Source: Escherichia coli
GTDB taxonomy: Bacteria > Pseudomonadota > Gammaproteobacteria > Enterobacterales > Enterobacteriaceae
Strand: one strand, 5' to 3'
Length of the DNA stretch: 64,000 nucleotides
NCBI RefSeq assembly: GCF_003991155.1
Contig: NZ_CP031295.1
The first letter of the stretch is position 1. Each line of letters begins with the position of its first letter. Made by a program: the position numbers and the translations under genes. The notes below the pieces were generated by a model. It saw only the letters and a program-made list of their open reading frames with translations. It ran no database searches and was not told where the DNA came from. Positions 12,321-28,143 of the stretch are shown piece after piece.

Positions 12321-13140
12321 GGCACTGTTGCAAAGTTAGCGATGAGGCAGCCTTTTGTCTTATTCAAAGGCCTTACATTTCAAAAACTCTGCTTACCAGG
12401 CGCATTTCGCCCAGGGGATCACCATAATAAAATGCTGAGGCCTGGCCTTTTGCGTAGTGCACGCATCACCTCAATACCTTTGATGGTGGCGTAAGCCGTC
12501 TTCATGGATTTAAATCCCAGCGTGGCGCCGATTATCCGTTTCAGTTTGCCATGATCGCATTCAATCACGTTGTTCCGGTACTTAATCTGTCGGTGTTCAA
12601 CGTCAGACGGCACACGGCCTTCGCGTTTGAGCAGAGCAAGCGCGCGACCATAGGCGGGCGCTTTATCCGTGTTGATGAATCGCGGGATCTGCCACTTCTT
12701 CACGTTGTTGAGGATTTTACCCAGAAACCGGTATGCAGCTTTGCTGTTACGACGGGAGGAGAGATAAAATCGACAGTGCGGCCCCGGCTGTCGACGGCCC
12801 GGTACAGATACGCCCAGCGGCCATTGACCTTCACGTAGGTTTCATCCATGTGCCACGGGCAAAGATCGGAAGGGTTACGCCAGTACCAGCGCAGCCGTTT
12901 TTCCATTTCAGGCGCATAACGCTGAACCCAGCGGTAAATCGTGGAGTGATCGACATTCACTCCGCGTTCAGCCAGCATCTCCTGCAGCTCACGGTAACTG
13001 ATGCCGTATTTGCAGTACCAGCGTACGGCCCACAGAATGATGTCACGCTGAAAATGCCGGCCTTTGAATGGGTTCATGTGCAGCTCCATCAGCAAAAGGG
13101 GATGATAAGTTTATCACCACCGACTATTTGCAACAGTGCC
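12321..13140 (-). mobile_element. IS26 (copy 2; transposase frameshifted)
   Basis: 820 bp between IS26 IRs; homopolymer-length and base differences versus copy 1 break the tnp26 frame. Confidence 0.85.
12373..13077 (-). pseudogene. tnp26: IS26 tnp26 with frameshifts
   Basis: Split into ORFs 12700-13095 and 12419-12703. Confidence 0.8.
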
Positions 13141-13479
13141 CGCCCGCCTATGGTCGCGCGCTTGCTCTGCTCAAACGCGAAGGCCGGTGCCCGTCTGACG
13201 TTGAACACCGACAGATTAAGTACCGGAACAACGTGATTGAATGCGATCATGGCAAACTGAAACGGATAATCGGCGCCACGCTGGGATTTAAATCCATGAA
13301 GACGGCTTACGCCACCATCAAAGGTATTGAGGTGATGCGTGCACTACGCAAAGGCCAGGCCTCAGCATTTTATTATGGTGATCCCCTGGGCGAAATGCGC
13401 CTGGTAAGCAGAGTTTTTGAAATGTAAGGCCTTTGAATAAGACAAAAGGCTGCCTCATCGCTAACTTTGCAACAGTGCC
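13141..13479 (+). mobile_element. IS26, 3' partial copy (left arm of Tn4352-like unit, interrupted by IS26 copy 2)
   Basis: Begins inside tnp26 (CGCCCGCCTATGGTCGCGCG) directly abutting copy 2 IR; ends with IS26 IR at 13479. Confidence 0.8.
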
Positions 13480-13616: not shown

Positions 13617-14432
13617 TTAGAAAAACTCATCGAGCATCAAATGAAACTGCAATTTATTCATATCAGGATTATCAATACCATATTTTTGAAAAAGCCGTTT
13701 CTGTAATGAAGGAGAAAACTCACCGAGGCAGTTCCATAGGATGGCAAGATCCTGGTATCGGTCTGCGATTCCGACTCGTCCAACATCAATACAACCTATT
13801 AATTTCCCCTCGTCAAAAATAAGGTTATCAAGTGAGAAATCACCATGAGTGACGACTGAATCCGGTGAGAATGGCAAAAGCTTATGCATTTCTTTCCAGA
13901 CTTGTTCAACAGGCCAGCCATTACGCTCGTCATCAAAATCACTCGCATCAACCAAACCGTTATTCATTCGTGATTGCGCCTGAGCGAGACGAAATACGCG
14001 ATCGCTGTTAAAAGGACAATTACAAACAGGAATCGAATGCAACCGGCGCAGGAACACTGCCAGCGCATCAACAATATTTTCACCTGAATCAGGATATTCT
14101 TCTAATACCTGGAATGCTGTTTTCCCGGGGATCGCAGTGGTGAGTAACCATGCATCATCAGGAGTACGGATAAAATGCTTGATGGTCGGAAGAGGCATAA
14201 ATTCCGTCAGCCAGTTTAGTCTGACCATCTCATCTGTAACATCATTGGCAACGCTACCTTTGCCATGTTTCAGAAACAACTCTGGCGCATCGGGCTTCCC
14301 ATACAATCGATAGATTGTCGCACCTGATTGCCCGACATTATCGCGAGCCCATTTATACCCATATAAATCAGCATCCATGTTGGAATTTAATCGCGGCCTC
14401 GAGCAAGACGTTTCCCGTTGAATATGGCTCAT
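13617..14432 (-). CDS. aph(3')-Ia: Aminoglycoside 3'-phosphotransferase APH(3')-Ia
   Basis: 271 aa MSHIQRETSCSRPRLNSNMDADLYGYKWARDNVGQSGATIYRLYGK... = Tn903 aphA1. Confidence 0.95.
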   Translation of the reverse strand: MSHIQRETSCSRPRLNSNMDADLYGYKWARDNVGQSGATIYRLYGKPDAPELFLKHGKGSVANDVTDEMVRLNWLTEFMPLPTIKHFIRTPDDAWLLTTAIPGKTAFQVLEEYPDSGENIVDALAVFLRRLHSIPVCNCPFNSDRVFRLAQAQSRMNNGLVDASDFDDERNGWPVEQVWKEMHKLLPFSPDSVVTHGDFSLDNLIFDEGKLIGCIDVGRVGIADRYQDLAILWNCLGEFSPSLQKRLFQKYGIDNPDMNKLQFHLMLDEFF

Positions 14433-14519: not shown

Positions 14520-15339
14520 GGCACTGTTGCAAATAGTCGGTGGTGATAAACTTATCATCCCCTTTTGCTGATGGAGCTGCACATGAACCCATTCAAAGGC
14601 CGGCATTTTCAGCGTGACATCATTCTGTGGGCCGTACGCTGGTACTGCAAATACGGCATCAGTTACCGTGAGCTGCAGGAGATGCTGGCTGAACGCGGAG
14701 TGAATGTCGATCACTCCACGATTTACCGCTGGGTTCAGCGTTATGCGCCTGAAATGGAAAAACGGCTGCGCTGGTACTGGCGTAACCCTTCCGATCTTTG
14801 CCCGTGGCACATGGATGAAACCTACGTGAAGGTCAATGGCCGCTGGGCGTATCTGTACCGGGCCGTCGACAGCCGGGGCCGCACTGTCGATTTTTATATC
14901 TCCTCCCGTCGTAACAGCAAAGCTGCATACCGGTTTCTGGGTAAAATCCTCAACAACGTGAAGAAGTGGCAGATCCCGCGATTCATCAACACGGATAAAG
15001 CGCCCGCCTATGGTCGCGCGCTTGCTCTGCTCAAACGCGAAGGCCGGTGCCCGTCTGACGTTGAACACCGACAGATTAAGTACCGGAACAACGTGATTGA
15101 ATGCGATCATGGCAAACTGAAACGGATAATCGGCGCCACGCTGGGATTTAAATCCATGAAGACGGCTTACGCCACCATCAAAGGTATTGAGGTGATGCGT
15201 GCACTACGCAAAGGCCAGGCCTCAGCATTTTATTATGGTGATCCCCTGGGCGAAATGCGCCTGGTAAGCAGAGTTTTTGAAATGTAAGGCCTTTGAATAA
15301 GACAAAAGGCTGCCTCATCGCTAACTTTGCAACAGTGCC
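14520..15339 (+). mobile_element. IS26 (copy 3, 820 bp)
   Basis: IS26 IRs at both ends; intact tnp26. Confidence 0.95.
14583..15287 (+). CDS. tnp26: IS26 transposase Tnp26
   Basis: 234 aa; one substitution versus copy 1 (DFYISS vs DFYLSS). Confidence 0.95.
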
Positions 15340-15660
15340 ACGAACAGCACCTTCAGATAATGGTATCCAGTCAATTTGTGCCTTCATAATACCAGTCATC
15401 GCTCCATGTCGTTCCGGAGAGCACCACACCATTCCTTCAGACCAGCGAACCAGTTCACGCAACTCCATAACTTTTGGATGTGATTCCGGTGCATCATCAG
15501 GAAGTGGAAGGCCAGATGGATTAAAAATGCGGACGTCTGCGCCCATTGCAGTTAACAAACGGCCTGCTTCCTCTGTCGCCAGTCGACTGTATGAGCGCTC
15601 ACGAACTGAGCCATAAAGCATTAGAATACGAGGTGGGTGAGATATTGCCGGTATCCCCAT
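15340..15660 (-). pseudogene. arsH: arsH (NADPH-dependent FMN reductase), 3'-truncated by IS26
   Basis: N-terminal approx 107 aa [27 protein letters not shown]... ArsH-like; reading frame runs into IS26. Confidence 0.6.
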
Positions 15661-15820
15661 TTTTTGCTCAGTTATTGCAGTATCAGATAAATCAGGAACT
15701 ATATTATTTAACCTATTAATTTTTATGATTTTCTCTATATATTCTTGGCTTAATTAGGTGTGCTTCGCACGGGTAGATACAGCATTCGTCAATCATGACA
15801 GTTATGAGTTTTCCGGTTAC

Positions 15821-16144
15821 TTACCCATTTTTGCCAGCGGGTTCCGCAACATCTGTTTTACTGTTTACACAGCACTCTTCACGTAAGAATTCGATGATAG
15901 CTTCCAGTATTTCATATTGAGAGACGCACATGAGCGTTCGACTCTCCCGGTTTTGTGTGACGAGTCCTACTGATACCAGGGCTGAAATATGATGACTTAA
16001 CGTTGATGAAGGAATGCCAAGCTGCTTTTGCAATTCACCTACAGGTAAACCTTGTTCTCCAGCTTTTACAAGATGTTTGAATATGAACAAACGGGTCGGG
16101 TGACCCAGTTCTTTTAGAGCTTTAGCTACTTCTTCCAGTTGCAT
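15821..16144 (-). CDS. arsR: ArsR/SmtB family metalloregulatory transcriptional repressor
   Basis: 107 aa with wHTH (LAKELGHPTRLFIFKHL...ISALVSVGLV) and C-terminal Cys pair. Confidence 0.7.
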   Translation of the reverse strand: MQLEEVAKALKELGHPTRLFIFKHLVKAGEQGLPVGELQKQLGIPSSTLSHHISALVSVGLVTQNRESRTLMCVSQYEILEAIIEFLREECCVNSKTDVAEPAGKNG

Positions 16145-16248
16145 GTGACAACCCTCTGCCTGATGATATTTCGATAATACCAGAAATATCTTGACTATAA
16201 TTATATTTCGATTATTCTAGAATAATAGATTCTGTCAAGAGGTTTAGT

Positions 16249-17328
16249 ATGAATAGTTGGATTCCTATGTTGCAAGATGCCGCAGAGATGTTTGTTTTTC
16301 TGGCTGTTGAGCTTTCATTGCTGTTTATTGTCATTAGTGCCGGTGTGAGCCTGATAAGGCAAAAAGTCCCGGATCATAAAATTCAGCAGATGATGGGGGC
16401 GAGAAAAGGTAAGGGGTATCTGTTGGCCTCGTTGCTGGGAGCCGTTACCCCTTTCTGTAGTTGCTCAACAATTCCAATGTTGCGAGGATTGTTGTCTGCG
16501 AAAGCGGGGTTTGGTCCGACACTCACTTTTTTGTTTGTTTCACCGTTGCTTAATCCCATTATCGTGGGACTAATGTGGGTTACCTTTGGCTGGAAAGTAA
16601 CTTTGCTGTATGCGATCATCGCTGCCGGTGTTTCAGTTCTTTCCAGTATTATACTGGATTATTTAGGGTTTGAACGTCATATTGTTGAATACAAAAATTC
16701 AGTATCAGGTAGTTGCGCCACCAAGTGCGGTGATTCTGAAGCTTCGGTAAAAACGAATTGCTGTACTTCATCAGCAAAAACCATAATTAACTTAAAGACA
16801 GTAAAGAAAGAGCAAAATATATCGGCGTGTTGTCCCTCAATTCTATCAGAAAAATCTTCTGAAAGTTGTTGCAGCAGCGAGAGTCAGGGCAACAGAAATC
16901 TCACAATGAATGCCACCTCTGGTCTAATAAAATTAGCAATGAAAGATGCCTTACAACAGTTTAAGGATGTTCTGCCTTATCTTTTGTTAGCTATATTAAT
17001 AGGTTCATTTATTTATGGTTTTATCCCTTCAGAGTGGATTGCAGCTCATGCCGGTGCAGATAATCCATTAGCCATACCGCTCAGTGCTGTTGTTGGTATT
17101 CCGCTGTATATTCGTGCTGAGGCCGTAATACCACTTGCATCAGTTCTGATGACTAAAGGTATGGGCCTCGGAGCTTTAATGGCCTTGATAATCGGTAGTG
17201 CTGGAGCGAGTCTGACAGAAGTAATATTGCTTAAATCAATGTTCAGAATGCCCATGATAATCGCATTTCTGACGGTTATCTTAGGTATGGCAATCCTTAT
17301 GGGATATTTAACGCAATTTTTGTTTTAA
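16249..17328 (+). CDS. arsP: ArsP-like organoarsenical efflux permease
   Basis: Multi-TM permease with the ArsP signature TPFCSCSTIP and a Cys-rich loop (CC, ACCP, SCCSS). Confidence 0.65.
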   Translation: MNSWIPMLQDAAEMFVFLAVELSLLFIVISAGVSLIRQKVPDHKIQQMMGARKGKGYLLASLLGAVTPFCSCSTIPMLRGLLSAKAGFGPTLTFLFVSPLLNPIIVGLMWVTFGWKVTLLYAIIAAGVSVLSSIILDYLGFERHIVEYKNSVSGSCATKCGDSEASVKTNCCTSSAKTIINLKTVKKEQNISACCPSILSEKSSESCCSSESQGNRNLTMNATSGLIKLAMKDALQQFKDVLPYLLLAILIGSFIYGFIPSEWIAAHAGADNPLAIPLSAVVGIPLYIRAEAVIPLASVLMTKGMGLGALMALIIGSAGASLTEVILLKSMFRMPMIIAFLTVILGMAILMGYLTQFLF

Positions 17329-17620
17329 TCCTTATGAGAAGGGATTTTTGCGTCAATATGAAAATCCCTTCAGTCTTACGGCGCGGTTCTAACGGTGTAG
17401 CCCTTTTATTGTTATCCCTAAACCACCTCCTAGGGAGGTGGTGATTGATCCTGTAAGGCTATAGCCTGAAGAATGCCCATGTCGGAATATCTCTGCTTAC
17501 TGACCACAAGTAAAAGCAACTGTTCTACCAGCAGCCTGCAAAAAACATATAAGCTGATCTGAAAGGAATACTTCACAATGAATATTATTGTGTTTGTAAC
17601 CTGCTGTTATCGCGATGAAA

Positions 17621-18238
17621 TTACCGTTCAGTTTTTTCGGTTGACGCGGACTGTTCCTGCATGGTTTTCATCTTTAGCTTCTGTTGTTCCCTTACTGCCA
17701 GCCAGCGTCTGGCATTCAGCGCATCGCATTCTGATACCTGACCTGCTGGTAGTCCATCCAGTCCATAACGAGGGATACCTGCGACAGCAGTACGCTGCAG
17801 ATATACCTGTCGGGTGGTGATGCAGGATATTGCACAGGACCATTCATCCAGTGTCAGTTCTGTCTCAGGGTGTTCTGTCAGGAATGCGGCAAAATCATTG
17901 GTTATGCCAATTTTCAGTGGAAGAAATCCTCCGCCTTCTGCGCGAAGATGGGGAAACAGAGACTTCACTTTTTCCACGCAATCGTGAGTAAATTCATGAG
18001 TCCAATGAGGCTGGCGTGGAAAACGGCGTCTTTTCTTTTTTTTCTTACAGGCAGGAGCATCAGGGGTATGAGTATCGACGGCAGGCGAACTGATCCCCTC
18101 AGAGACTGATTCTTCCATCTTTTCTGTCTCTGAACGTGCGATAACACCTGTTTTTTCAGATAAGGAAGGGGGTAAAAGAGTGCGACGTTTTTTCACCATA
18201 ATGATGGGTGTTTTCTTTTCTTCCTGATATTTCCCCAT
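17621..18238 (-). CDS. ProQ/FinO-domain RNA-binding protein
   Basis: Lys/Arg-rich tract (KKKKKRRR) followed by FLPLKIGITNDFAAFL...RYGLDG, resembling ProQ/FinO domain. Confidence 0.45.
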   Translation of the reverse strand: MGKYQEEKKTPIIMVKKRRTLLPPSLSEKTGVIARSETEKMEESVSEGISSPAVDTHTPDAPACKKKKKRRRFPRQPHWTHEFTHDCVEKVKSLFPHLRAEGGGFLPLKIGITNDFAAFLTEHPETELTLDEWSCAISCITTRQVYLQRTAVAGIPRYGLDGLPAGQVSECDALNARRWLAVREQQKLKMKTMQEQSASTEKTER

Positions 18239-18525
18239 AAAAACCTCTACGATGTGTTCTTATATAATAATATATATCATATTTTCACGATTAACATAAT
18301 ATCTTCGTTAAGAAAACAACAGAGCAAAATTTGTTTTTTTTTGACAGGCATGAAATGAGCCAGCATAATTATATTAATTATTATCCCAAATGAGTTTTTG
18401 TATTTGCTCATTCGGGATGGTTGGATATTTTAAGTTATATCTACTGTATCATTCTCAGGTAATCGTTCCATTAAATCAGAAACTACGGGCTGTAACCAGT
18501 CAGTGACTTCACTCACATACTGATG

Positions 18526-19992
18526 TCATTCGGGATGCCTGGAGGCCAGATCCATCACTCGTGTTAACCCGGACGGACGATCAATGCCCAATTTAGTTAA
18601 AATATTCGAGATATAATTATGAGCATCAAGTTCAACTCTGATATCCCTTGCTGCTTCGATTATTTCTAAATATTCGCCACCCAATCCGTCCAGTGGGACA
18701 TTTGTAATAAGATAATGAATGTATTGTTCAGGCTTAACCCCATTTGGGAGATTAAATTGTTTTACTTTTCCTTCCGCTGCCGCTTTTAACTCATAAGTTC
18801 GTGATTCTGTGCCGGTGAAAACTTTATCACGAGCAGTTTTCTTTTCATTTTCTGTGGAATATTTATCGCCATCAAGAATATAAAGTTTACCAGATAGATT
18901 GTCACCACGAATAAGGGTACTGGCAAGTAGAGTGAATGCGTTTGAAGCTGCGCCAAATTTAAATATTTTTACATATTTGCTGGCCTTAAGTGAAGAACAT
19001 ATTTTATTTATTATGGCAACAGCTAAGTCATCTTCTACATATATTTCAATAGGCGTCGTTGATTCACCTGTTAATCTGTTTATAGCATCAGGTTTTGTTT
19101 CTTCAAATGAATAACTACGGCCTTGAATGTTTACGACGTGTCTTATATTTATCTTGTCTGATAAAGTGGTTATCATTTCTCTATGGGTAGTAAAGATGAT
19201 TTGTTTGTTTTTATCTTTGGCATGAGATGATATGACTTCTATTAACTTTTTCAATGCTTCGTCATGCAACAATAAATCTAATTCATCAATTAATATTAAG
19301 GCGTTCTTGTCCGCTTTCAATATTGTTTCCAGAATTAAAAATATCTTTTGCTCTCCTGCGCTCATACTCAATGATGAGTAGGCCAGTCCCCCTGACTCAA
19401 CTCCAATCAATATTTTTCCATTGGGTTGTTGATGCTGATTGAAACTTGTGTATGGTTTATTAAGTATATAGGAGGCGTAATGAAGAATGTTTGTTATTAA
19501 ATCATTACTGACACTGCTGGTTTCATACTGAATATTATTCTTTTTTTCTGATTCTATTATAGGAACACATTTATCAATGCCAAGATAGTAAACTTCTCTT
19601 AAAGGACGACGAGCATAAATCTGAATCCATCGTGAGCCTCGAATATCTGCTTTTCCATAATTTTTCAATTCATTTTCAATCATTACCCCATCTTTACGAT
19701 AAGTTAAATTTACAATGAAGTCACTGCCGTTCCATTCAGCATGTGGGCTGCGTGGAAAAAAATGCATTAACCGATGGTCTTCACCGGGGAAACCTTCTTC
19801 AGGCATGTATATGCTTGCTATAGCATGGAGTATTGTTGATTTTCCGCTTCCATTTGGACCTAAAATTGCGGTTAACGCATGAGGTTTAAAAATAATCTCG
19901 TTTAATCCATTTATACATTTTAGTTTGTTAATTTTAATGGAGTTCAAGACTTGACCAGTAATGGTTTTTTTATTTTTTTCTGCCATTTTCAA
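18526..19992 (-). CDS. OLD-family ABC ATPase-TOPRIM nuclease (defence-associated), apparently solo
   Basis: Walker A GPNGSGKST, signature/Walker B LSMSAGEQK...ILIDELDLLLHDE, H-loop FTTH; C-terminal TOPRIM-like IEIYVEDD and YILDGDKY; AT-rich. Confidence 0.55.
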   Translation of the reverse strand: MKMAEKNKKTITGQVLNSIKINKLKCINGLNEIIFKPHALTAILGPNGSGKSTILHAIASIYMPEEGFPGEDHRLMHFFPRSPHAEWNGSDFIVNLTYRKDGVMIENELKNYGKADIRGSRWIQIYARRPLREVYYLGIDKCVPIIESEKKNNIQYETSSVSNDLITNILHYASYILNKPYTSFNQHQQPNGKILIGVESGGLAYSSLSMSAGEQKIFLILETILKADKNALILIDELDLLLHDEALKKLIEVISSHAKDKNKQIIFTTHREMITTLSDKINIRHVVNIQGRSYSFEETKPDAINRLTGESTTPIEIYVEDDLAVAIINKICSSLKASKYVKIFKFGAASNAFTLLASTLIRGDNLSGKLYILDGDKYSTENEKKTARDKVFTGTESRTYELKAAAEGKVKQFNLPNGVKPEQYIHYLITNVPLDGLGGEYLEIIEAARDIRVELDAHNYISNILTKLGIDRPSGLTRVMDLASRHPE

Positions 19993-20248
19993 ATCCTAGC
20001 ATTATGTTGGGGGGATTCACCATGTAATTCAGAAACATATAACTGTGAACAGGGGATATATCAAATCCTTTTAATATTCTATTTGGCACAGTATTCTACA
20101 TCAGGCCTCTTTTATGCTACAGACTTTTTGAGATGTCTGTAATTTTAGACTTAATGTTATGACTGATCATATCTCCTATCCACTGGTGGCGCAGGAAAGT
20201 TAACCAGCTGCCACCATGGGATGATGTGTAAACCGTGCTGGTATGTTT

Positions 20249-20839
20249 TTACGGGGTGACGCTTTCATTAACCTGTACACGAACCTCCATTCCGGCATCG
20301 TGACAGGCCTGCAGCCACTGCGCCACTTCCAGCGGATCGCCCTCCAGGCGTACCACCCTGCCTTCTTTATTCCATAACTGCAGACAGGTGCTGCCGTCGA
20401 GACGTACCACAAAATCCCCACGGCAGGCCTGATACGTTATGCCGTTCAGCTGCACCGCCAGATCAGTGGCAGAAGTGCCGTCTGCGGGCAGACCTGCTGC
20501 CGGGACCAGCGGCAGTACGACGACTTCTGCCGCACGCTGTTCTGCCCGGAGGCGGTCCTGTTCTGCCAGCAGCAGAGGCTGTGCCACGGCCCGGCCGGCG
20601 TCCGTCAGCTCGACAGCCAGCTGCAGATTCGGGGCGCGCAGGGTACGCAGCCAGCCGGCATCCTCCAGACGACGGCAGGAGGCGCGCAGGTTTGGCCCGT
20701 AGACCGGGGCTTCCCCGCTTCGCTCCAGCACCCGTTCCAGGTCCCGCGTCAGCACGGGGCCCGGCCGTTTTTCATCAAGCGCAGCCAGCACAATCAGCAC
20801 TCTCCGCTGCAGTGGCGACGGTCGGCGGCTCTGGGTCAT
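20249..20839 (-). CDS. hypothetical protein, GC-rich, possible winged-helix N-terminus
   Basis: 196-aa ORF, GC-rich codon usage distinct from neighbours; translationally coupled to upstream 85-aa ORF. Confidence 0.4.
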   Translation of the reverse strand: MTQSRRPSPLQRRVLIVLAALDEKRPGPVLTRDLERVLERSGEAPVYGPNLRASCRRLEDAGWLRTLRAPNLQLAVELTDAGRAVAQPLLLAEQDRLRAEQRAAEVVVLPLVPAAGLPADGTSATDLAVQLNGITYQACRGDFVVRLDGSTCLQLWNKEGRVVRLEGDPLEVAQWLQACHDAGMEVRVQVNESVTP

Positions 20840-21096
20840 TACCTGTCATCCTCCGGCCAGATGAGGTTTCTGAGGCGCTGAAAGTCGGCGTCAATGAGCT
20901 CCTGTCTCTTTATGGCATTCATTGAGGCATAGCCATTTATGGCCAGTTCATGCCAGAAGATCAGCACGGCTCCGGCTTTGGCTGACTCGCAGAGATAAAT
21001 CGCGCCCTGGCTGTCCAGATTGCATTCCCGGATGCGTTTTTCCGCAAACCGGGTCAGTTGTTCATAGCTGAGTGAAAACACCCTTTCTTCATCCAT
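20839..21096 (-). CDS. hypothetical small protein (85 aa)
   Basis: ORF whose stop overlaps start of 20249-20839 gene. Confidence 0.35.
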   Translation of the reverse strand: MDEERVFSLSYEQLTRFAEKRIRECNLDSQGAIYLCESAKAGAVLIFWHELAINGYASMNAIKRQELIDADFQRLRNLIWPEDDR

Positions 21097-21449
21097 CCTG
21101 CACGCTCCATCTGATAATGTACTGACAGGTAAAAATAATATCCTGCATGATTTGTGTGCTCATGATTTCTGATAATATCAGATATTGTTTTATCATCAAT
21201 GATGAAAACCATATCTGATATGATTTTATATATATTTCTTAATTATCATATCATTTGCGTCTTTTCTGCCGCGCAGATCCAGTTTCCGGCTAAGTCGGAT
21301 CGACCTAATCTTTGTTTCTGATATGAACACCTCGGAGAGGTGTAAGCAATGGTATAAACGAAATGTATTATGTATCTGCATCACAGCATGCGGGCACATT
21401 TTGCGGAAGGATATGAATCCCCCCGGAATAACTGGCAAAGGACAGATAA

Positions 21450-23588
21450 ATGGACATTGAAATACGCCACTGCAATAACATCGTACGAGCACATATCACC
21501 CTCACTGCCGATAAACTGAACATTAAGTTTGCGCCAAATGGTACTGGAAAAAGTACGCTGTCACGGGCCATAAGCTGTGCGGCGCGGGACGACATTCAGG
21601 GACTACAGGCACTGATGCCCTTCCGGCTGCGCGGAGAAAACCCCGATAGCACCGGGCCCATTGTCATCGGTGCTGACGGGATTGGGGACGTGATGTGCTT
21701 CAACGAGGAGTACGTCAGTCAGTTTACGTTCCAACCGGACGAGCTCATCAGTGATAGCTTTAATATTCTTATCCGCAATCAAGCCCATGCGGAAAGAGAG
21801 CGTGAAATAGAAGAAATGACGCAAAAGATCCGGGCTGTTTTCACGGATCACACTGAGCTGAACTCTCTGATAGACCATCTACAGGAACTCAGTAATGCTT
21901 TCAGATCAACCAGTTCCGGGATTTCACGTTCTTCAACCGGCATGAGAGGTCTGTCAGGCGGAAATAAAATACACCACATTCCGGCTGGTCTTGAGAACTA
22001 TCAACCCTACATCCGCAGTGAACGCCGCGTGGAATGGATTGACTGGCAGACAAAGGGACTCGAGTTTTCGCCCCTTTCGGATGGCTGCTGTCCGTTCTGT
22101 ACCGGTGATATCACGGGAAAGGAAGCACAAATTCGCCAAGTCAGAGAGGAATACGATAAATCCACCATTAAAAACCTGACCGCTATCATCAGACTGGTGG
22201 AAAACCTCGGTAATTACCTGACGGAGAGCGCCAGAGAACGCCTTCTGGCCATTACTATGCTTCAGAACGGTCCGGAAGCCGAACATATCGAGTACCTAGT
22301 GGCGTTGAAACGCCAGACCGATACGCTGACAGAGAAACTCACTGCGCTGAGAGGCCTGAATGTTTTCAGCCTGCAGGAACAGCAGAACGTTCGGGAGGTG
22401 CTCACTGCCAGGTTGATTGACCTGCAGTTCTTCCCTGATCTGCAATCCGAACTCATGCAGGGGATCACCGACAGACTGAACGCGGCCCTTATGGACCTGA
22501 TAAACCTTGCCGGACCGCTGCAGGGAAAAATTAACCGGCACCGGGACAGCATGATCCGGCTGATCGCACAGCACAAAACAAACATCAATAATTTCCTCAC
22601 TTATGCAGGCTATAAATACAGGGTGGATATAGCCGGCGAGGGAGAGCAGAGAAAACTCAGGCTACGACACATAGATTTTGACGGGTACGTCAGCGGCGGT
22701 AGCCAGCATCTCAGCTATGGAGAACGGAACGCCTTTGCGATTGTGTTATTCATGTATGAATGCCTGTCAAAAAACCCGGGACTGATTATCCTTGATGATC
22801 CCATATCTTCTTTTGATAAAAACAAGAAGTTTGCCATTCTTGAAATGCTGTTCAGACGTGCAAGTGGTGAATGCCTGAAGAACCGGACTGTACTTATGCT
22901 GACGCATGACGTGGAGCCTGTGATTGACACGCTGAAGTCAGTCAGAAGGTTGTTCAGTAATCAGGTGACCGCCTCCTGCCTGCGCCTGTCTGCTGGAGTC
23001 ATAGAAGAATTACCTGTTAACGACGGCGATATCATGACATTCATGCAGATCTGCAAATCCATCACCGCGTCAGCAGACTGTGAGGAGATCATTAAGCTCA
23101 TCTATCTTCGTCGCTACTTTGAAATCGTTGACGAACGTGGTGATGCTTATCAGCTTCTATCCAATCTATTCCATCGACGCGTCGTCCCGCTGGATTATCG
23201 CGAGCCTGCCGCTGCGGGCTCGGGCTATCCCAAAATGGCTCCTGAGAAAATTCAGCAGGCCTTGCGGGATATCCGGGAGTATGTGGACAGTTTTGATTAC
23301 CCGCGACTTCAGGCTCTCGTCAGCAGCCCAGATGAAATAAAAAACCTGTACCGTCGCTGTCGTAACGGCTATGAAAAACTGCAGGTATTCCGTTTACTGG
23401 AACTGGATCAGGACCATCCGGTAATACGAAAATTCGTTAACGAAACGTACCACATTGAAAATGAGTTCATCTGTCAACTAGATCCGTCCAGATTCGATCT
23501 CATCCCGGAGTACGTGATTATGGAATGTGACAAGCTCATCGCCCTGCCACCGGCAGCAAACCAGAGCTCGGTTGCCCGTATCGCTTGA
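21450..23588 (+). CDS. SMC/Rad50-like ABC ATPase with CxxC hook and C-terminal effector-like domain (RloC/PrrC-like candidate)
   Basis: Walker A APNGTGKST (aa~30); CCPFC (aa~223) in predicted coiled-coil insert; signature LSYGERNAF, Walker B LIILDDP, H-loop LMLTHD (aa~440-495); approx 210-aa C-terminal domain. Confidence 0.5.
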   Translation: MDIEIRHCNNIVRAHITLTADKLNIKFAPNGTGKSTLSRAISCAARDDIQGLQALMPFRLRGENPDSTGPIVIGADGIGDVMCFNEEYVSQFTFQPDELISDSFNILIRNQAHAEREREIEEMTQKIRAVFTDHTELNSLIDHLQELSNAFRSTSSGISRSSTGMRGLSGGNKIHHIPAGLENYQPYIRSERRVEWIDWQTKGLEFSPLSDGCCPFCTGDITGKEAQIRQVREEYDKSTIKNLTAIIRLVENLGNYLTESARERLLAITMLQNGPEAEHIEYLVALKRQTDTLTEKLTALRGLNVFSLQEQQNVREVLTARLIDLQFFPDLQSELMQGITDRLNAALMDLINLAGPLQGKINRHRDSMIRLIAQHKTNINNFLTYAGYKYRVDIAGEGEQRKLRLRHIDFDGYVSGGSQHLSYGERNAFAIVLFMYECLSKNPGLIILDDPISSFDKNKKFAILEMLFRRASGECLKNRTVLMLTHDVEPVIDTLKSVRRLFSNQVTASCLRLSAGVIEELPVNDGDIMTFMQICKSITASADCEEIIKLIYLRRYFEIVDERGDAYQLLSNLFHRRVVPLDYREPAAAGSGYPKMAPEKIQQALRDIREYVDSFDYPRLQALVSSPDEIKNLYRRCRNGYEKLQVFRLLELDQDHPVIRKFVNETYHIENEFICQLDPSRFDLIPEYVIMECDKLIALPPAANQSSVARIA

Positions 23589-23749
23589 GCCACTGTTTTT
23601 GCCGCCGGAAGATAGGCTTTAGCTCCCTGATAGTCTGATCTTCGAAGATACCCTACAGTTTAGGACCGCTTACTGTAGATATCTGTTAAAACAGCCCGTA
23701 TACGGGCTGTTTCTTGGTGCCCTTATCTCCTGACTTTGAAAAGAGTGTC

Positions 23750-24166
23750 TTACTTCACCCAGTCTTCCAGCACCAGGTCAGGCACTCGCTCAAATTCTCT
23801 TGTATTATTCGTTACCAGTATCGCCCCGGCGGCGATGGCGTGCCCGGCAATCGCCGTGTCGTTCGGGCCGATCGGCGTCCCGGCCAGCCGCAGTGCCACT
23901 TTAATCTTCGTGGTGGCGTCTACTGCGGCGCGATCCCAGGGCAGGATGGCATCGAGGCGGGCGCAGAATTCATCGACCAGTTGGACGTGACGTGGTGAGG
24001 CCTTTGGGCCGGTAGCCCCGAAGCGCATTTCAGAGTAGGTGATGGCCGAGACCACTATACGGTGGCCGCGTAGCACCGCCTGCTCCAGACGCTTCAGGAC
24101 GGCTTCTGGCTGTTCACGCATGATGAACGAGCAGATACAGGTATCAAGCATATAAGTCTTGTTCAC
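23750..24166 (-). CDS. vapC: VapC PIN-domain toxin
   Basis: 138 aa MLDTCICSFIMREQP...; PIN-domain acidic residues; overlaps vapB stop. Confidence 0.85.
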   Translation of the reverse strand: MNKTYMLDTCICSFIMREQPEAVLKRLEQAVLRGHRIVVSAITYSEMRFGATGPKASPRHVQLVDEFCARLDAILPWDRAAVDATTKIKVALRLAGTPIGPNDTAIAGHAIAAGAILVTNNTREFERVPDLVLEDWVK

Positions 24167-24393
24167 AGGTTAAATCGCCCTTCGTCGCTGACAACATCCT
24201 CGCGCTCCGCCATAAAATCTGGATCGGCTTTTTCGTACTCTAGGAATGATCCCCAGGTTGGCCGGACGGGGCGCAGGATGATGCTGTCCCCTTCCCGGAC
24301 GATCTCGAGCTCGCTCACCCCCTCAAAATCCAGATCACGAGGCAGACGGATGGCGCGGTTGTTGCCATTTTTGAATATCGATACGGTTCTCAT
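24163..24393 (-). CDS. vapB: VapB antitoxin (AbrB/SpoVT-type)
   Basis: 76 aa MRTVSIFKNGNNRAIRLPRDL...; 4-nt overlap with vapC. Confidence 0.85.
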   Translation of the reverse strand: MRTVSIFKNGNNRAIRLPRDLDFEGVSELEIVREGDSIILRPVRPTWGSFLEYEKADPDFMAEREDVVSDEGRFNL

Positions 24394-24407
24394 GTTTTTT
24401 CTCTCCC

Positions 24408-24540
24408 GAGCATATGGATATGTGAAACATATCCGGAATATTCAAAGCACCGGGTGTGTGCATATGTTTAGTATAGGCAGATGTGTGGCATATGTATAGC
24501 GGTAGCATATGTAGATGCCAGGCATATGTTTAGCATATCT
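24408..24540. promoter_or_regulatory. array of about six GCATATGT repeats upstream of vapB (putative vapBC operator)
   Basis: Repeated CATATG-core motifs spaced about 15-25 bp immediately upstream of vapB start. Confidence 0.4.
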
Positions 24541-24688
24541 CTATTTCTTTCTTTTTTATCGGAGATCCGAAAAAAGGTTAAGTCTGATCTTAATGAAATT
24601 ACATGGAATTTGAGTGATATCCCTTACCCCACATCTCCAACGTGCTATCTATAAAGGTTGATACATCTCACTTAGTCCGGAGGTTGTT

Positions 24689-24979
24689 ATGAGCGTCAAA
24701 ATCACAGGTTTAGACAAAATGCAGAAACAGCTAAAAGAGGTTGAGAGAGCAACAGAGGCATTAAACGGAAGTTATGATGTCCACTTCGATGCTAACGATC
24801 CTGTCAGCATTGAGAACGCGATTCAGGAAGCCTATTCCATGGTGTACGAACGCGCTTCTGGTTATGCCACTAATCCGATGGTCAGCCCATTAATCGAACA
24901 CATGAAAGAAAATCTGCGCCAACAGATTCTGGACAGAGCAGAACAACAAAGACAGGAGAGCGGGCAGGATGGCAATTGA
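24689..24979 (+). CDS. hypothetical small protein (96 aa), first gene of TIR-like cassette
   Basis: ORF with RBS-like GGAGG upstream; 11-nt overlap with next gene. Confidence 0.45.
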   Translation: MSVKITGLDKMQKQLKEVERATEALNGSYDVHFDANDPVSIENAIQEAYSMVYERASGYATNPMVSPLIEHMKENLRQQILDRAEQQRQESGQDGN

Positions 24980-25868
24980 TATCTTTCAGTCACTTAAAAA
25001 TTGCGTATTCGACCTTCAGCGCGCTGACGTTCAGAACTATCAGCAACCTCTTAAGCAATTGGCCCGGCTCTTGAACTCAGAGAATCTGCAGTCAGTTAAT
25101 GCACATCTGACCCGCAATGTTGAACTTGATACCTTTCTGGCCAGGAGTGAAGATACTGAATCCAGCATGGCTGGTTCCGCTGTTCTACAGTGGCCTGATG
25201 AGCCCGCTGATATTTTGGGCCTGAAGTTGCTGCTGATCGAGAAAATGGCAGACGATAACAATTTTTCCTTTAATTTCTGTCATACATTTTTCTATGATCG
25301 AAACATTATTGAATCCATTCGAAAATTCACGTCGTCATTAGTTGCCCCGTTCGTGCGCGATTACCAGTTGTATGTGGAAAACCAACACGATCCTGAGCCT
25401 GCAGTGTTTCGGCCGGTTTCCCGAAAAATTTTTATTGTTCATGGCCATGATAATGATGCCCTTCAGTCTGTTGCCCGTTTTATATCCCGGATAGGTCTTG
25501 AGGAAATCATTCTTTCAGAACGTCCTGACGGCTCCAGGACGATTATCGAGAAATTTGAAGCAGAGTCAGGGGATGTCAGTTTTGCCATCGTGCTGATGAC
25601 GCCCGACGATAGCGGCAGTGCTCTGGCATCTGAAAGCACACGTCTCCGCGCACGCCAGAATGTCCTGTATGAGCTCGGATATTTCGCCGGGAAGCTTGGA
25701 CGCGGGAAAGTACTTGTACTCAGGAAGGGAGATATCGAAATCCCTTCAGATCTTGCCGGGGTTCTCTATACCGAGCTTGATGAGCATGGTGGATGGAAAC
25801 GCAAACTGCTGAGTGAGCTTGCGTATGCCGGTGTTCCTTTTGACAAGGATAAAGCATTAAGCGCCTGA
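24969..25868 (+). CDS. TIR-like-domain protein (PF10137-type C-terminus) with unknown N-terminal domain
   Basis: C-terminal motifs KIFIVHGHD, AIVLMTPDD, RARQNVLYELGYFAGKLGRGKV, EIPSDLAGV typical of predicted nucleotide-binding TIR-like proteins. Confidence 0.55.
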   Translation: MAIDIFQSLKNCVFDLQRADVQNYQQPLKQLARLLNSENLQSVNAHLTRNVELDTFLARSEDTESSMAGSAVLQWPDEPADILGLKLLLIEKMADDNNFSFNFCHTFFYDRNIIESIRKFTSSLVAPFVRDYQLYVENQHDPEPAVFRPVSRKIFIVHGHDNDALQSVARFISRIGLEEIILSERPDGSRTIIEKFEAESGDVSFAIVLMTPDDSGSALASESTRLRARQNVLYELGYFAGKLGRGKVLVLRKGDIEIPSDLAGVLYTELDEHGGWKRKLLSELAYAGVPFDKDKALSA

Positions 25869-25917
25869 TCTCCTTCATTTAGTAAGAAAAAGGCCGCTAA
25901 GCGGCCTTAATTTTTGG

Positions 25918-28143
25918 TCAGTCGTCATTTTCCAGCGCTGTTTTGAGCGCTTCCTGCTCCGGAGTCAGCTCGTTGCCGGACAGCATAACCTTCAACTTCT
26001 CTTCGACTGCTGGCCAGTCATCAAAGAACGGACTGACCTGGTCACGCGCAATCCGGCGATATGCCCCTCGGTGGGAGCTGAAGACACTGGTCTGTAATCG
26101 TATCAACAGGTTAACAAGGCCTTCATCAGTGGTAGTAACTTCTCTGACCCATTGCTTCACGGTTTCACCTGAACTCATGTCTCTCCAGGCGTAGAGATAC
26201 CCGAGAAGAGACTTGCGCAGGAGAAGCTGTTGCTGAAGTTCTGGTTGATTCATACGTTCCGCAAACCTGTCACGCAACCGTTCCGTAATATCGCGACTGA
26301 AAAGAGCGTCTGAAGGCGAAGGTACTGCATTCTGAGCAAGTCCATGTTCCCAGATAAGATCCCGCATAAAATCGGCTATCCAGAACGGCGAAGCACCCGT
26401 AACGATCAGTTTTTCCATAAGCGTGATCGTTCTGGTCTCATCAATATCCTGCATATGCTTCAGCAGATGCCGTACAACCTCATTAATGGCCATTTCACGC
26501 AGGGAAAACCATGGGTTACGGATACTGAAGCGAGTGCTCACCTCATCGGTGTGATCGAAGAAAAAATGAACCAGTCCTGCGCACTCTTCGAAATTACGTT
26601 CTCTTATCAGGCCTGGAGTCAGTCTGCTCAGTATATGTTCAAACCAGGTTCCGGACAGACTGCCCACACTGTTGATTTTTGAGAGCAGCAATTCAGAAAG
26701 CTGCTGCTGTTTTTCCGATACGCCAGCCTGTTCAAAAAGCTGTCTGAAGAATTCAGGTGGCAGAACATTCTGTGGTGAGGAGAAGGCAAAATAATATCGC
26801 CAGTGCGTCAGGCTGCTGAGTCGTTTACCGGTCGTCTGGATATGACGAAAATCCTCACTGACGGGCTCAAAAAGATTCAGATATTCATCATTATGTCCAC
26901 TGATACCTGGGATCCAGTCTGCAAGTGTCAGAAACGAGTCTGCATTTGATGCCCTGAACGTCTTCATACATCTGATAAGCCCCTCCCGGAAGTCTGCTTT
27001 CTCTCCGTCAGAAAGCATACCCTGACCGGTTTCAATCACGGACCGTTCTGTCAGGTAATGCTCTGTCCAGTCATACAGAGCCGGGTTTGTCACCCGTATA
27101 AGCTGAAGCAGGCACAAATCAGGGAAATAAACAAAATCCCGCATCCCCGGATAAAGAAAAATCAGGGAATTAATGGCCTGATGGATTTCCCGTGGCGTCG
27201 AAAGTGCGGCACCATAGGTATCAGTCACCGCGATGAGATCCCTTACCATTCCAGAGTCTGGCGGTTGATTATTAATTTGCTGATATAGAGCCTCAGCCCG
27301 CTGGCGAAATTCATTACGTAAATCAAAGGCTTCAGGTCGGGGTAATTTAAAACTAAGCTGAATGATTTTCTGGAGATAACGGCTGCCATCTTCGATATTC
27401 AGCGCATGTTCAACGGCATGAGTGATAATCTGCCTGTCATAACAGAGAATATGGGTAAAGCGGGGCAGATCGGCTACTGCACGCACAAGCCTGAACACTT
27501 CCGCCACCTGGGATGGCTCCAGTCGGTCCAGATCATCCATGACAACAATGAACTTCAGATCCAGACTCACCAGTTGTCCTGCAATTTCAGCCCGAAGCTT
27601 TGTCGTGGTTTTCTGATCAACAGCCAGACGGCTGTCTGAAAATACCTTTATTCCGCCTGCTATCCAGTTAATAATGCTGGAAAACTGTCCGATATATTGA
27701 ACCAGTGGAAGGACGCGCGATGAAGTATCCTGAGCATACTCAATCACTTTTTGAGCTTCCGGTGACAACAGATATTTACGCCAGAGCTTTTTGAAGCCCT
27801 TCGGGGGATAGCGTATTTCCATTTCCTGCTGGATAACCGTGGCAACCGGAAGAAAGAGCGCTTCAACCGGACTGCCGCCACTCAGCCAGGGAGAAATATG
27901 CAGCACATGCGTGTGAGCATCTTTTTTCAGGGCAAGGTTTCTCAGGATCAGATTAAGGAGGCTTGTTTTACCCGATCCCCATGCACCTTCTATTCCGACA
28001 ACATTTGAAGCCTCCAGAGGAAGAGTAAGGATGGAACGGGATATATTTTCTGCGATATTACCGAAACCGTATCGATCCTCAGGTACATCTTCAACTGCCG
28101 CATCAAGCCCTTTCTGGTTCCACAGCTGCCTCAGTATCTTCAT
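25918..28143 (-). CDS. KAP family P-loop NTPase
   Basis: 741 aa; Walker A GAWGSGKTS, Walker B FIVVMDDLDRL; large size typical of KAP NTPases. Confidence 0.6.
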   Translation of the reverse strand: MKILRQLWNQKGLDAAVEDVPEDRYGFGNIAENISRSILTLPLEASNVVGIEGAWGSGKTSLLNLILRNLALKKDAHTHVLHISPWLSGGSPVEALFLPVATVIQQEMEIRYPPKGFKKLWRKYLLSPEAQKVIEYAQDTSSRVLPLVQYIGQFSSIINWIAGGIKVFSDSRLAVDQKTTTKLRAEIAGQLVSLDLKFIVVMDDLDRLEPSQVAEVFRLVRAVADLPRFTHILCYDRQIITHAVEHALNIEDGSRYLQKIIQLSFKLPRPEAFDLRNEFRQRAEALYQQINNQPPDSGMVRDLIAVTDTYGAALSTPREIHQAINSLIFLYPGMRDFVYFPDLCLLQLIRVTNPALYDWTEHYLTERSVIETGQGMLSDGEKADFREGLIRCMKTFRASNADSFLTLADWIPGISGHNDEYLNLFEPVSEDFRHIQTTGKRLSSLTHWRYYFAFSSPQNVLPPEFFRQLFEQAGVSEKQQQLSELLLSKINSVGSLSGTWFEHILSRLTPGLIRERNFEECAGLVHFFFDHTDEVSTRFSIRNPWFSLREMAINEVVRHLLKHMQDIDETRTITLMEKLIVTGASPFWIADFMRDLIWEHGLAQNAVPSPSDALFSRDITERLRDRFAERMNQPELQQQLLLRKSLLGYLYAWRDMSSGETVKQWVREVTTTDEGLVNLLIRLQTSVFSSHRGAYRRIARDQVSPFFDDWPAVEEKLKVMLSGNELTPEQEALKTALENDD

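Follow-up and report, generated by a model that had tools for sequence, protein, structure and literature searches.

An IS26-cut remnant of an R64-type "ars2" arsenic island in Escherichia coli that keeps ArsR2 and an ArsP-family permease

ArsP of Campylobacter jejuni exports MAs(III) and Rox(III); As(III) is not among its substrates (PMC6205960). ArsP proteins of cluster 2 are defined by a tPF plus C(S/T)C motif (Yang et al. 2015, PMC4435449). In the "ars2" island of R64, the genes are arranged as arsA-arsB-arsC ... arsD, a sigma-factor gene, arsH, arsR2 and a permease gene facing arsR2, and the published label of this parent cluster is arsP-arsR-arsH (PMC6449608). A homologous module on pUO-STmRV1 has an intact arsH, an ArsR 99% identical to ours and a permease 91% identical; strain LSP 389/97 with pUO-STmRV1 showed a 16-fold higher MIC of phenylarsine oxide with unchanged MICs of arsenite and arsenate, and how much of this phenotype is due to ArsH and how much to the permease was never separated (PMC8169936).

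Here we describe a remnant of such a module in a 64,000-nucleotide stretch of E. coli DNA, the whole of which is called the window below. The features of the remnant and its boundary are as follows.

14520 to 15339, plus strand: IS26 copy of 820 bp with 14-bp terminal inverted repeats; ends GGCACTGTTGCAAA...TTTGCAACAGTGCC.
15340 to 15660, minus strand: truncated arsH (pseudogene), 321 nt, codons 1-107 of a 216-aa protein.
15821 to 16144, minus strand: arsR (arsR2 in R64 nomenclature), encoding an ArsR/SmtB winged-helix repressor of 107 aa.
16145 to 16248, no strand assigned: divergent control region of 104 bp, with operator-like boxes at 16163-16190 and 16200-16222 and overlapping promoter-like sites.
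16249 to 17328, plus strand: ArsP-family (PF03773) permease, 359 aa, intact.
16423 to 17175, plus strand: patch that is recombinant with respect to R64 and contains an in-frame deletion of 54 bp (at about 16749/16750).
16447 to 16476, plus strand: TPFCSCSTIP motif, permease residues 67-76, with Cys70 and Cys72.
16672 to 16935, plus strand: Cys/Ser/Thr-rich central loop, permease residues 142-229, disordered, joining the two repeats of the permease and containing 8 Cys.

The window shares gene order and downstream backbone with R64, and only two differences lie outside 16423-17175 over about 9.9 kb. In R64 the island continues in full on the left side of arsH, whereas in the window everything past arsH codon 107 has been deleted by IS26. 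Judging from this comparison, the segment is the rest of an R64-type "ars2" arsenic island after an IS26-mediated deletion. The transposase ORF of the element (14565-15287) is the Tnp26 gene and the element conforms to IS26 of the IS6 family; the same element is annotated as IS26 in identical plasmids. Its right end cuts arsH, and the element forms the boundary of a multiresistance region. Two more full copies and one partial copy of IS26 are present in the 64-kb window, and in a search for a target-site duplication the 8 bp adjoining arsH (ACGAACAG) had no repeat at the other IS26 flanks in the window.

The arsH remnant matched positions 23-124 of 219 of the ArsH profile TIGR02690 (E 3.9e-54), and its 183 bits fell below the cut-off of 292 bits for a full-length ArsH. 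It also matched positions 1-98 of 152 of the FMN_red profile PF03358. Its identity to the N-terminus of R64 ArsH is 96.4% over 112 residues, with the alignment continuing into IS26, and the frame likewise runs on into IS26 to give a 160-aa ORF. RefSeq labels the remnant as incomplete with a missing C-terminus. ArsH, the organoarsenical oxidase, is on this reading of the truncated frame dead here and leaves no functional member. In tblastn searches of the whole 64-kb window, there was no match for ArsB, Acr3, both ArsC types or ArsD, while ArsA gave only a weak 32-residue P-loop match and no arsA was found; a scan of the whole window against Rfam returned no family at the gathering score. A sequence-only reading of this DNA had proposed that IS26 cut arsH after approximately 107 codons, that arsR is co-directional with arsH and divergent from the permease gene, and that arsB and arsC are absent. 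All of this held: IS26 ends at 15339, the 321 nt of arsH run from 15660 down to 15340, arsR lies upstream of arsH, and tblastn recovered neither arsB nor arsC.

The permease covers nearly the whole PF03773 profile (residues 10-357 against positions 4-294 of 294) with 181.5 bits versus a cut-off of 32.3. In a homology search, it aligned over its full length (residues 1-358 with residues 1-315) to C. jejuni ArsP (P0481, 315 aa) with 35% identity and E 4e-69, which agrees with the earlier description of the protein as an ArsP-like permease. C. jejuni ArsP shares the identical TPFCSCSTIP, its Cys65 and Cys67 corresponding to Cys70 and Cys72 of the permease; one CC pair of the loop also aligns, and each protein is encoded beside an ArsR. 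On the other hand, the central loop of the permease is about 45 residues longer with 8 Cys against 2, and C. jejuni arsP heads an arsP-arsR-arsC-acr3 operon with a CVC-type ArsR, whereas our permease gene and that of an AfArsR-like regulator diverge. In NCBI, the Campylobacter proteins bear the name "organoarsenical efflux permease ArsP", and the window protein is listed only as "permease".

TPFCSCSTIP had been taken as an ArsP signature. The motif is indeed present at residues 67-76 and fits the definition of ArsP cluster 2, but it does not single out ArsP: of 96 full-length PF03773 representatives (50% identity clusters), Cys70 is found in 93 and Cys72 in 82. Thus, the motif is silent on the substrate, because it is family-wide in PF03773. 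SO_0444 and SaoE are named subfamilies of PF03773 that gave partial HMM matches to the permease. When we checked whether the permease belongs to such a non-arsenic family, it reached 112.1 bits versus a cut-off of 300 for the Cu/Zn efflux transporter SO_0444 (NF033936) and 88.1 bits versus 325 for the efflux transporter SaoE (NF040736). The ten nearest representatives of the permease tested also stayed below both cut-offs, and C. jejuni ArsP scored in the same range as the permease on the two profiles. On these curated thresholds, both assignments were rejected.

By its predicted model, the permease is of the fold class of the ion-transporter superfamily (ArsB, DASS), with two repeats that each have broken or hairpin helices. 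Sequence similarity to ArsB, INDY/DASS and Pho90 is undetectable (7-13% identity), and the permease differs from them in its much smaller size, about 280 ordered residues, and in its Cys-x-Cys site. A sequence search of the PDB found no chain matching the permease at E <= 1, and Foldseek returned nothing significant for the model. In the model, helices 52-66 and 71-83 are separated by a break where the TPFCSCSTIP motif lies, and Cys70 and Cys72 at this first helix-pair break would probably form a thiol site that binds a trivalent arsenical. Chen and colleagues are said to have found in 2015 that mutating the two conserved cysteines of ArsP abolished transport.

The several Cys pairs noticed earlier in the loop were recovered as three CC pairs (171/172, 194/195 and 207/208) together with C156-x3-C160. 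Residues 168-217 have pLDDT below 50 in the predicted model. Among homologues, the loop varies in length and sequence while the Cys pairs recur, and dN/dS is 0.35 in the loop versus 0.07 in the membrane parts, which are under strong purifying selection. Lys and Arg number 5 in the loop at 39-55, none in the matching repeat-2 loop at 259-274 and 12 in the central loop, and the central loop is predicted to be cytoplasmic. Such a disordered loop with vicinal Cys may capture the substrate or hand it over.

ArsR2 scored 63.2 bits on NF033788, above the cut-off of 55, and also matched HTH_20. Its predicted model has the element order a1-a2-a3-a4-b1-b2-a5, with Cys73 at the end of strand beta2, three residues ahead of helix alpha5 (residues 77-90), which is followed by the CC pair. 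The best solved relative is AfArsR (PDB 6J05, E 1.8e-11). The vicinal pair Cys91-Cys92 of ArsR2 aligns with Cys95-Cys96 of AfArsR at the end of helix alpha5, whereas no Cys is present at the position of AfArsR Cys102, the pair being followed by VNSKTD; the type 2 As(III) site of AfArsR (Cys95, Cys96, Cys102) is therefore incomplete in ArsR2. SpArsR, compared here by its literature description (PMC11868830, PMC13236881), likewise has no Cys at the Cys102 position. The pair without the third Cys of AfArsR could correspond to the pair-only ligand set of SpArsR, an MAs(III)-selective ArsR, but Cys73 could add a third ligand in ArsR2; this extra Cys is invariant, and the use of such a Cys has been described for neither AfArsR nor SpArsR. 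In fact, Cys73, Cys91 and Cys92 are all invariant among the regulators paired with related permeases. The R773-type type 1 As(III) site CxCxxC is absent, since the corresponding stretch of ArsR2, GLPVGELQKQ, has no Cys, whereas the Campylobacter-type regulator (L014) has LCVCDLQ there. BigR-type sulfide sensors carry a Cys in helix alpha2. As a BigR/YgaV-type sulfide sensor, ArsR2 was rejected (37.8 bits versus 155; YgaV E 3.8e-8), and its helix alpha2 has no Cys.

In the control region, the rest of the spacer varies between Aeromonas and Escherichia, but both operator-like boxes are invariant. The sequence ATTTCGATWATWCYAGAA occurs twice in the window versus 0.02 expected, and a dyad GATATTTC-N10-GAAATATC lies in the spacer between arsR and the permease gene. 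Promoter-like sites, defined as consensus matches only, are TTGACT-16-TATTCT on the plus strand (16191-16218) and TTGACA-16-AATAAT on the minus strand (16238-16211). The boxes are most likely operators: ArsR2 would bind both of them and control its own transcript and that of the permease. A candidate terminator 3' of the permease gene, a 13-bp hairpin at 17338-17371, lacks a U-tract, scores z = -1.67 and is not claimed.

To see how far the pair extends, it is useful to look beyond R64. Among 5426 complete E. coli genomes, 2386 (about 44%) contain a match to the arsR2-permease pair, in most cases on the chromosome, and homologous pairs are also present in hundreds of resistance plasmids. The divergent pair adjoins arsRBC in E. 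coli and E. fergusonii and arsRDABC in Citrobacter, and heads arsR-arsC-arsD-arsA-arsB in Ignatzschineria. In Aeromonas, the pair stands alone without ars neighbours, and some relatives at 40-55% identity are also without them. Linkage to ars genes recurs in five separate contexts. From this distribution of sequences, the regulator-permease pair is a conserved, self-contained two-gene unit.

Taken together, the locus is in our view probably best explained as an IS26-cut ars2 remnant that leaves ArsR2 and an ArsP-family secondary carrier with residual organoarsenical efflux. Residual efflux of trivalent organoarsenicals is plausible by analogy with C. jejuni ArsP and the pUO-STmRV1 module, and the phenotype that we infer would most likely be inducible efflux of methylarsenite, phenylarsenite and reduced roxarsone. 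The remnant is unlikely to protect against inorganic arsenite or arsenate. The earlier suggestion that it may confer resistance to methylarsenite only gains indirect support from the phenotype of pUO-STmRV1. Some observations weigh against this explanation: 35% identity to ArsP fixes no substrate; the TPFCSCS motif is spread over PF03773; NCBI gives the window protein no ArsP name; the Aeromonas pair and some relatives have no ars neighbours; the best NCBIfam partial match of the permease is the Cu/Zn exporter SO_0444; the three invariant Cys of ArsR2 would suffice for sensing of inorganic As(III); and the phenotype of pUO-STmRV1 could come wholly from ArsH, which is broken in the window.

A further-reaching idea, which we put forward tentatively and hold to be rather doubtful, is that ArsR2 and the permease make up an autonomous sensor-exporter for trivalent organoarsenicals, which rather than ArsH would cause much of the phenylarsine-oxide resistance of the R64 type. 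It would work via an inter-subunit site of Cys73 plus Cys91/Cys92 and via a cytoplasmic, length-variable capture loop with vicinal Cys, both undescribed. If so, the pair would be a widespread overlooked determinant of organoarsenical resistance that moves with antibiotic-resistance regions in livestock isolates.

On the other hand, the pair may be a functionless passenger between the IS26 boundary and plasmid maintenance genes, giving no arsenic phenotype. This would suit the destroyed arsH, the loss of the remaining island, and a junction that looks clonal: the exact IS26/arsH junction is common to at least about 80 plasmids, including pSMS35_130 and pPBS4, and the flanking backbone (a ProQ/FinO-family gene, AAA ATPases and VapBC) always travels alongside the remnant. 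However, neither reading frame is disrupted, the promoter region and its boxes are likewise preserved, the membrane parts of the permease are under the strong purifying selection mentioned above, and four independent IS boundaries (three of IS26, one of IS1) all end before arsR. We consider a mere passenger unlikely.

Similarly, the permease could export inorganic As(III)/Sb(III) and replace ArsB, with ArsR2 sensing As(III) at a three-cysteine site to which one subunit gives Cys73 and its partner Cys91/Cys92. The three invariant Cys of ArsR2 would allow this. In the model, Cys73 precedes alpha5 by three residues and the CC pair immediately follows this helix, and helices alpha5 pack antiparallel in ArsR dimers (PMC11868830); the vicinal Cys pairs of the loop would also suit three-coordinate As(III), and the predicted permease fold resembles ArsB. 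Yet the arsenite MIC was not raised with an intact homologous module (PMC8169936), As(III) is no substrate of C. jejuni ArsP (PMC6205960), and the usual location of the pair next to a full arsB or arsAB system speaks for a different substrate, so that this function appears quite improbable. Export of a thiophilic metal (Cu, Zn, Cd) or a sulfur compound, with an incidental link to arsenic genes, is hardly credible: the SO_0444 and SaoE profiles are the best NCBIfam partial matches, Cys-rich loops are common metal-binding features, and one relative adjoins a CDF transporter and a PadR regulator and another sulfur-transport genes, but the scores lie far under the cut-offs and are like those of C. 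jejuni ArsP, the ars linkage recurs in the five contexts, and the nearest solved relative of ArsR2 is an arsenic sensor, with ArsR2 itself having no BigR-type Cys in helix alpha2.

The segment itself is an ordinary finding that was already known, being unchanged in many plasmids and having a parent cluster labelled in the literature. Its features are far beyond chance, and the remnant segment is 100% identical in many sequenced plasmids. With arsH dead and arsB, arsC and acr3 absent, the remnant should not be counted as a determinant of resistance to arsenite or arsenate. The surviving pair borders IS26-bounded multiresistance regions on plasmids of poultry, pig and cattle origin, and organoarsenicals were given as feed additives in these settings. 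If the permease exports trivalent organoarsenicals, as in the residual efflux favoured here, it could contribute to co-selection, and it would then have to be re-examined whether phenylarsine-oxide resistance is due to ArsH alone, as has been published.

Finally, the permease differs from that of R64 by a recombinant central patch. Of the 138 differences from R64 counted over the compared region of about 9.9 kb, 136 fall inside 16423-17175, and dS versus R64 is 0.3-0.4 within this patch and 0.013 outside it. The permease has 359 aa in the window versus 377 aa in R64, 18 residues fewer; the 54-bp deletion in the patch is bordered by AAAACG repeats, and one CC pair is lost with it. A 377-aa permease allele with the window-type loop and without the deletion also exists (P0002).

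The segment is a remnant, truncated by IS26, of the plasmid arsenic island known as the R64 ars2 cluster, and it retains an intact pair of the regulator ArsR2 and an ArsP-family permease. The remnant is already known, both as sequence and as annotation. The sequence-only reading had located its parts exactly:

14520-15339: IS26, 820 bp, whose end reads ...TTTGCAACAGTGCC
15660->15340, minus strand: arsH remnant, 321 nt, first 107 residues of ArsH, directly abutting IS26
16144->15821, minus strand: arsR2, ArsR/SmtB regulator, 107 aa, upstream of arsH on the same strand
16249-17328, plus strand: permease, 359 aa, PF03773 over the whole protein, facing arsR2

Thus, arsR is co-directional with arsH and divergent from the permease, as had been described. 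From 15340 onward, the sequence recurs with 100% identity in many plasmids of E. coli, Salmonella and Shigella, among them IncF, IncI1 and IncHI2 types (726 matching plasmid records). The uncut order in R64 is arsA, arsB, arsC, a GNAT gene, a TauE-family gene, a winged-helix gene, arsD, a sigma-70-family gene, arsH and arsR (named arsR2 in PMC8169936), with the permease facing arsR. A ProQ/FinO-family gene, AAA ATPases and VapBC lie beyond the permease in both R64 and the window, which differ at 138 positions over about 9.9 kb, 136 of them within 16423-17175. The window is ColV/ColBM-type IncF plasmid sequence, co-linear with pPBS4 over 14518-36100 and 36100-42976. The reported absence of arsB and arsC was borne out by tblastn: with ArsB, Acr3, the two ArsC types and ArsD as queries there was no match elsewhere in the 64 kb, and for ArsA the sole match was a weak one of 32 residues at a P-loop.

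The proposed cut of arsH after approximately 107 codons is also correct. The remnant matches TIGR02690, the ArsH model, with E 3.9e-54 (positions 23-124 of the 219 in the profile) and covers positions 1-98 of the 152 in FMN_red, and it is 96.4% identical to the N-terminus of R64 ArsH over 112 residues, in an alignment that crosses the junction into IS26. The frame continues through the junction to give a meaningless 160-aa ORF, and RefSeq annotates arsH of identical plasmids as incomplete. ArsH of a Klebsiella plasmid starts 20 codons farther upstream, but that start codon is missing from the window and the R64 lineage, and therefore 107 is the correct count. A 301-bp probe spanning the exact junction was fully covered in 86 plasmid records; in two of the 86, the match is pieced together around an additional 168 bp of arsH, so that about 80 share the exact cut, pSMS35_130 and pPBS4 among them. 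At the compared locus L001, IS26 cuts arsH after 163 codons instead, while other plasmids have an IS26 boundary 26 bp upstream of the arsH start or an IS1 boundary 45 bp past the arsR stop. Every matching plasmid sampled across the ranking keeps at least arsR and the beginning of the permease gene. The 8 bp adjoining arsH are not repeated at any other IS26 flank within the window, which is consistent with the island having been lost through IS26-mediated deletion or recombination, probably not by simple insertion. Elsewhere in the window (12321-13479), a complete IS26 on the minus strand (12321-13140) is immediately adjacent to a partial copy of 339 bp in the opposite orientation (13141-13479, IS26 positions 482-820), and aph(3')-Ia (13617-14432) adjoins this pair, as in pPBS4.

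With regard to the permease, its assignment as ArsP-like with a Cys-rich loop was upheld by the homology search: PF03773 covers the whole protein, and it is 35% identical over the full length (E 4e-69) to C. jejuni ArsP (P0481, 315 aa, NCBI-named), which has the identical motif and one aligning CC pair in the loop. This reference was reached via Campylobacter and Helicobacter representatives; one contig has the order permease, ArsR, LMW-phosphatase-type ArsC and Acr3, the layout of the C. jejuni operon. A full-database HMMER search gave 4523 representatives (E <= 0.001). Among 96 full-length ones, TPFCSCS(T/S)(I/V)P is nearly universal, in agreement with "tPF + C(S/T)C", the signature of ArsP cluster 2 (PMC4435449). 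Thus, TPFCSCSTIP (residues 67-76) marks the family, not the substrate. The NCBIfam models for SO_0444 Cu/Zn efflux (112 of 300) and SaoE (88 of 325) scored far under their cut-offs, also with ten of the nearest representatives.

When expressed in E. coli, C. jejuni ArsP exports MAs(III) (methylarsenite) and trivalent roxarsone, but not arsenite (PMC6205960). Moreover, Salmonella LSP 389/97, carrying pUO-STmRV1 with an R64-like segment, showed a phenylarsine-oxide MIC 16-fold above control strains and unchanged arsenite and arsenate MICs; the resistance was credited to arsH under arsR2 control, with no mention of the permease (PMC8169936). In pUO-STmRV1 (NZ_CP018220.1, L023 3671-6036), the permease is present and adjoins intact arsH. 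We therefore assign the phenotype, resistance to a trivalent organoarsenical without resistance to inorganic arsenic, to the three-gene module arsH-arsR2-permease, in which the permease may account for a share. Less likely readings would make the permease an exporter of arsenite or antimonite, or of thiophilic metals. Compared with arsH plus permease of pUO-STmRV1, the permease alone remains in the window.

The pair could also, less probably, be read as a functionless passenger. Its distribution in other genomes is as follows:

E. coli: after arsRBC, between arsC and slp; matches in 2386 of 5426 complete genomes, with 2248 chromosomal places
E. fergusonii: after arsRBC
Citrobacter: after arsRDABC
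Ignatzschineria (52% identity): heading arsR-arsC-arsD-arsA-arsB
Aeromonas: divergent pair alone

By these gene orders, the divergent regulator-permease pair is a conserved unit. Four more distant relatives (39-45% identity) have mixed contexts: two are without arsenic genes nearby, one is with LMW ArsC and one is beside a molybdopterin oxidoreductase and ArsR. The last (45% identity; L016 5001-10843, a Burkholderiaceae genome bin) adjoins the oxidoreductase, an iron-sulfur subunit, a chaperone and an ArsR-type regulator, a cluster that could serve arsenate respiration or arsenite oxidation.

ArsR2 passes the ArsR/SmtB model (63.2 bits, cut-off 55), and among solved structures it is closest to AfArsR (6J05, E 1.8e-11). 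Cys91-Cys92 align on Cys95-Cys96 of AfArsR, which supply two of its three As(III) ligands, whereas no cysteine occupies the Cys102 position. A CC pair without this third Cys is what the literature describes for SpArsR, a regulator selective for methylarsenite, for which two thiolates suffice (PMC11868830, PMC13236881). Unlike R773-type ArsR and the Campylobacter-type operon regulators, ArsR2 has no CxC site. The regulators that accompany related permeases in Aeromonas, in Ignatzschineria and on two metagenomic contigs (51-80% identical) all retain Cys73 in addition to the CC pair. The AlphaFold model (pLDDT 85) has Cys73 as the final residue of strand beta2, three positions ahead of helix alpha5 (77-90), and the CC pair immediately behind alpha5. 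Because alpha5 helices are antiparallel in ArsR dimers (PMC11868830), Cys73 could come together with Cys91/Cys92 of the partner subunit. With this candidate third ligand, ArsR2 may or may not share the methylarsenite selectivity of SpArsR.

The 104-bp spacer contains ATTTCGATWATWCYAGAA twice (16168-16185 and 16205-16222; chance expectation 0.02 per window), the former copy within a perfect dyad, GATATTTC-N10-GAAATATC. Both boxes are invariant within a variable spacer in an alignment of Escherichia, Klebsiella plasmid, Citrobacter and Aeromonas sequences, and promoter-like hexamers in both directions overlap them. We infer that these are putative operators from which ArsR2 would repress both divergent transcripts. 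On the E. coli chromosome NZ_CP015240.1 (L015 6993-8409), a homologous pair after arsRBC, annotated merely as an ArsR/SmtB factor and a permease, has operator-like boxes identical to those of the plasmid, and therefore cross-regulation between the chromosomal and plasmid copies may be possible.

The permease model (pLDDT 84.4, pTM 0.80) is confident apart from residues 145-221. It consists of two repeats, each with one long and one short helix, two pairs of broken helices and a last helix, joined by the central loop (142-229), which has eight Cys (C156-x3-C160 and three CC pairs). The halves align weakly in sequence, TPFCSCSTIP lying opposite PLYIRAEAVIP, and the break that separates helices 52-66 and 71-83 is where Cys70 and Cys72 are located. 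Lys/Arg counts (five in loop 39-55, none in its repeat-2 counterpart 259-274, twelve in the central loop) agree with an inverted-repeat topology. If residues 52-83 form a re-entrant hairpin, the central loop would probably be cytoplasmic, its cysteines would stay reduced, and it may capture substrate.

The loop varies in length across homologues, with one to seven CC pairs; close relatives of the permease have 298-377 aa, a more distant representative 402 aa, and plasmid alleles 345 and 377 aa. The ~750-bp patch of the permease gene that differs from R64 (16423-17175) has dS of 0.3-0.4 within flanks of 0.013, which indicates that recombination, and not local mutation, replaced this part of the allele. 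Within it, dN/dS is 0.07 in the membrane parts and 0.35 in the loop. In the window allele, 54 bp between AAAACG repeats are deleted in frame, with loss of one CC pair; a 377-aa allele without this deletion is otherwise 99% identical.

Finally, 3' of the permease (17621-28000), the window encodes the ProQ/FinO-family protein, two AAA ATPases and VapBC, together with a TIR-domain protein, a KAP-family P-loop NTPase and PifC; these backbone genes could serve maintenance or phage defence. No Rfam family reached its gathering score over the whole window (1-64000). One AAA ATPase ORF (18526-19992) has 488 aa in the window versus 518 aa in R64 and pSMS35_130.
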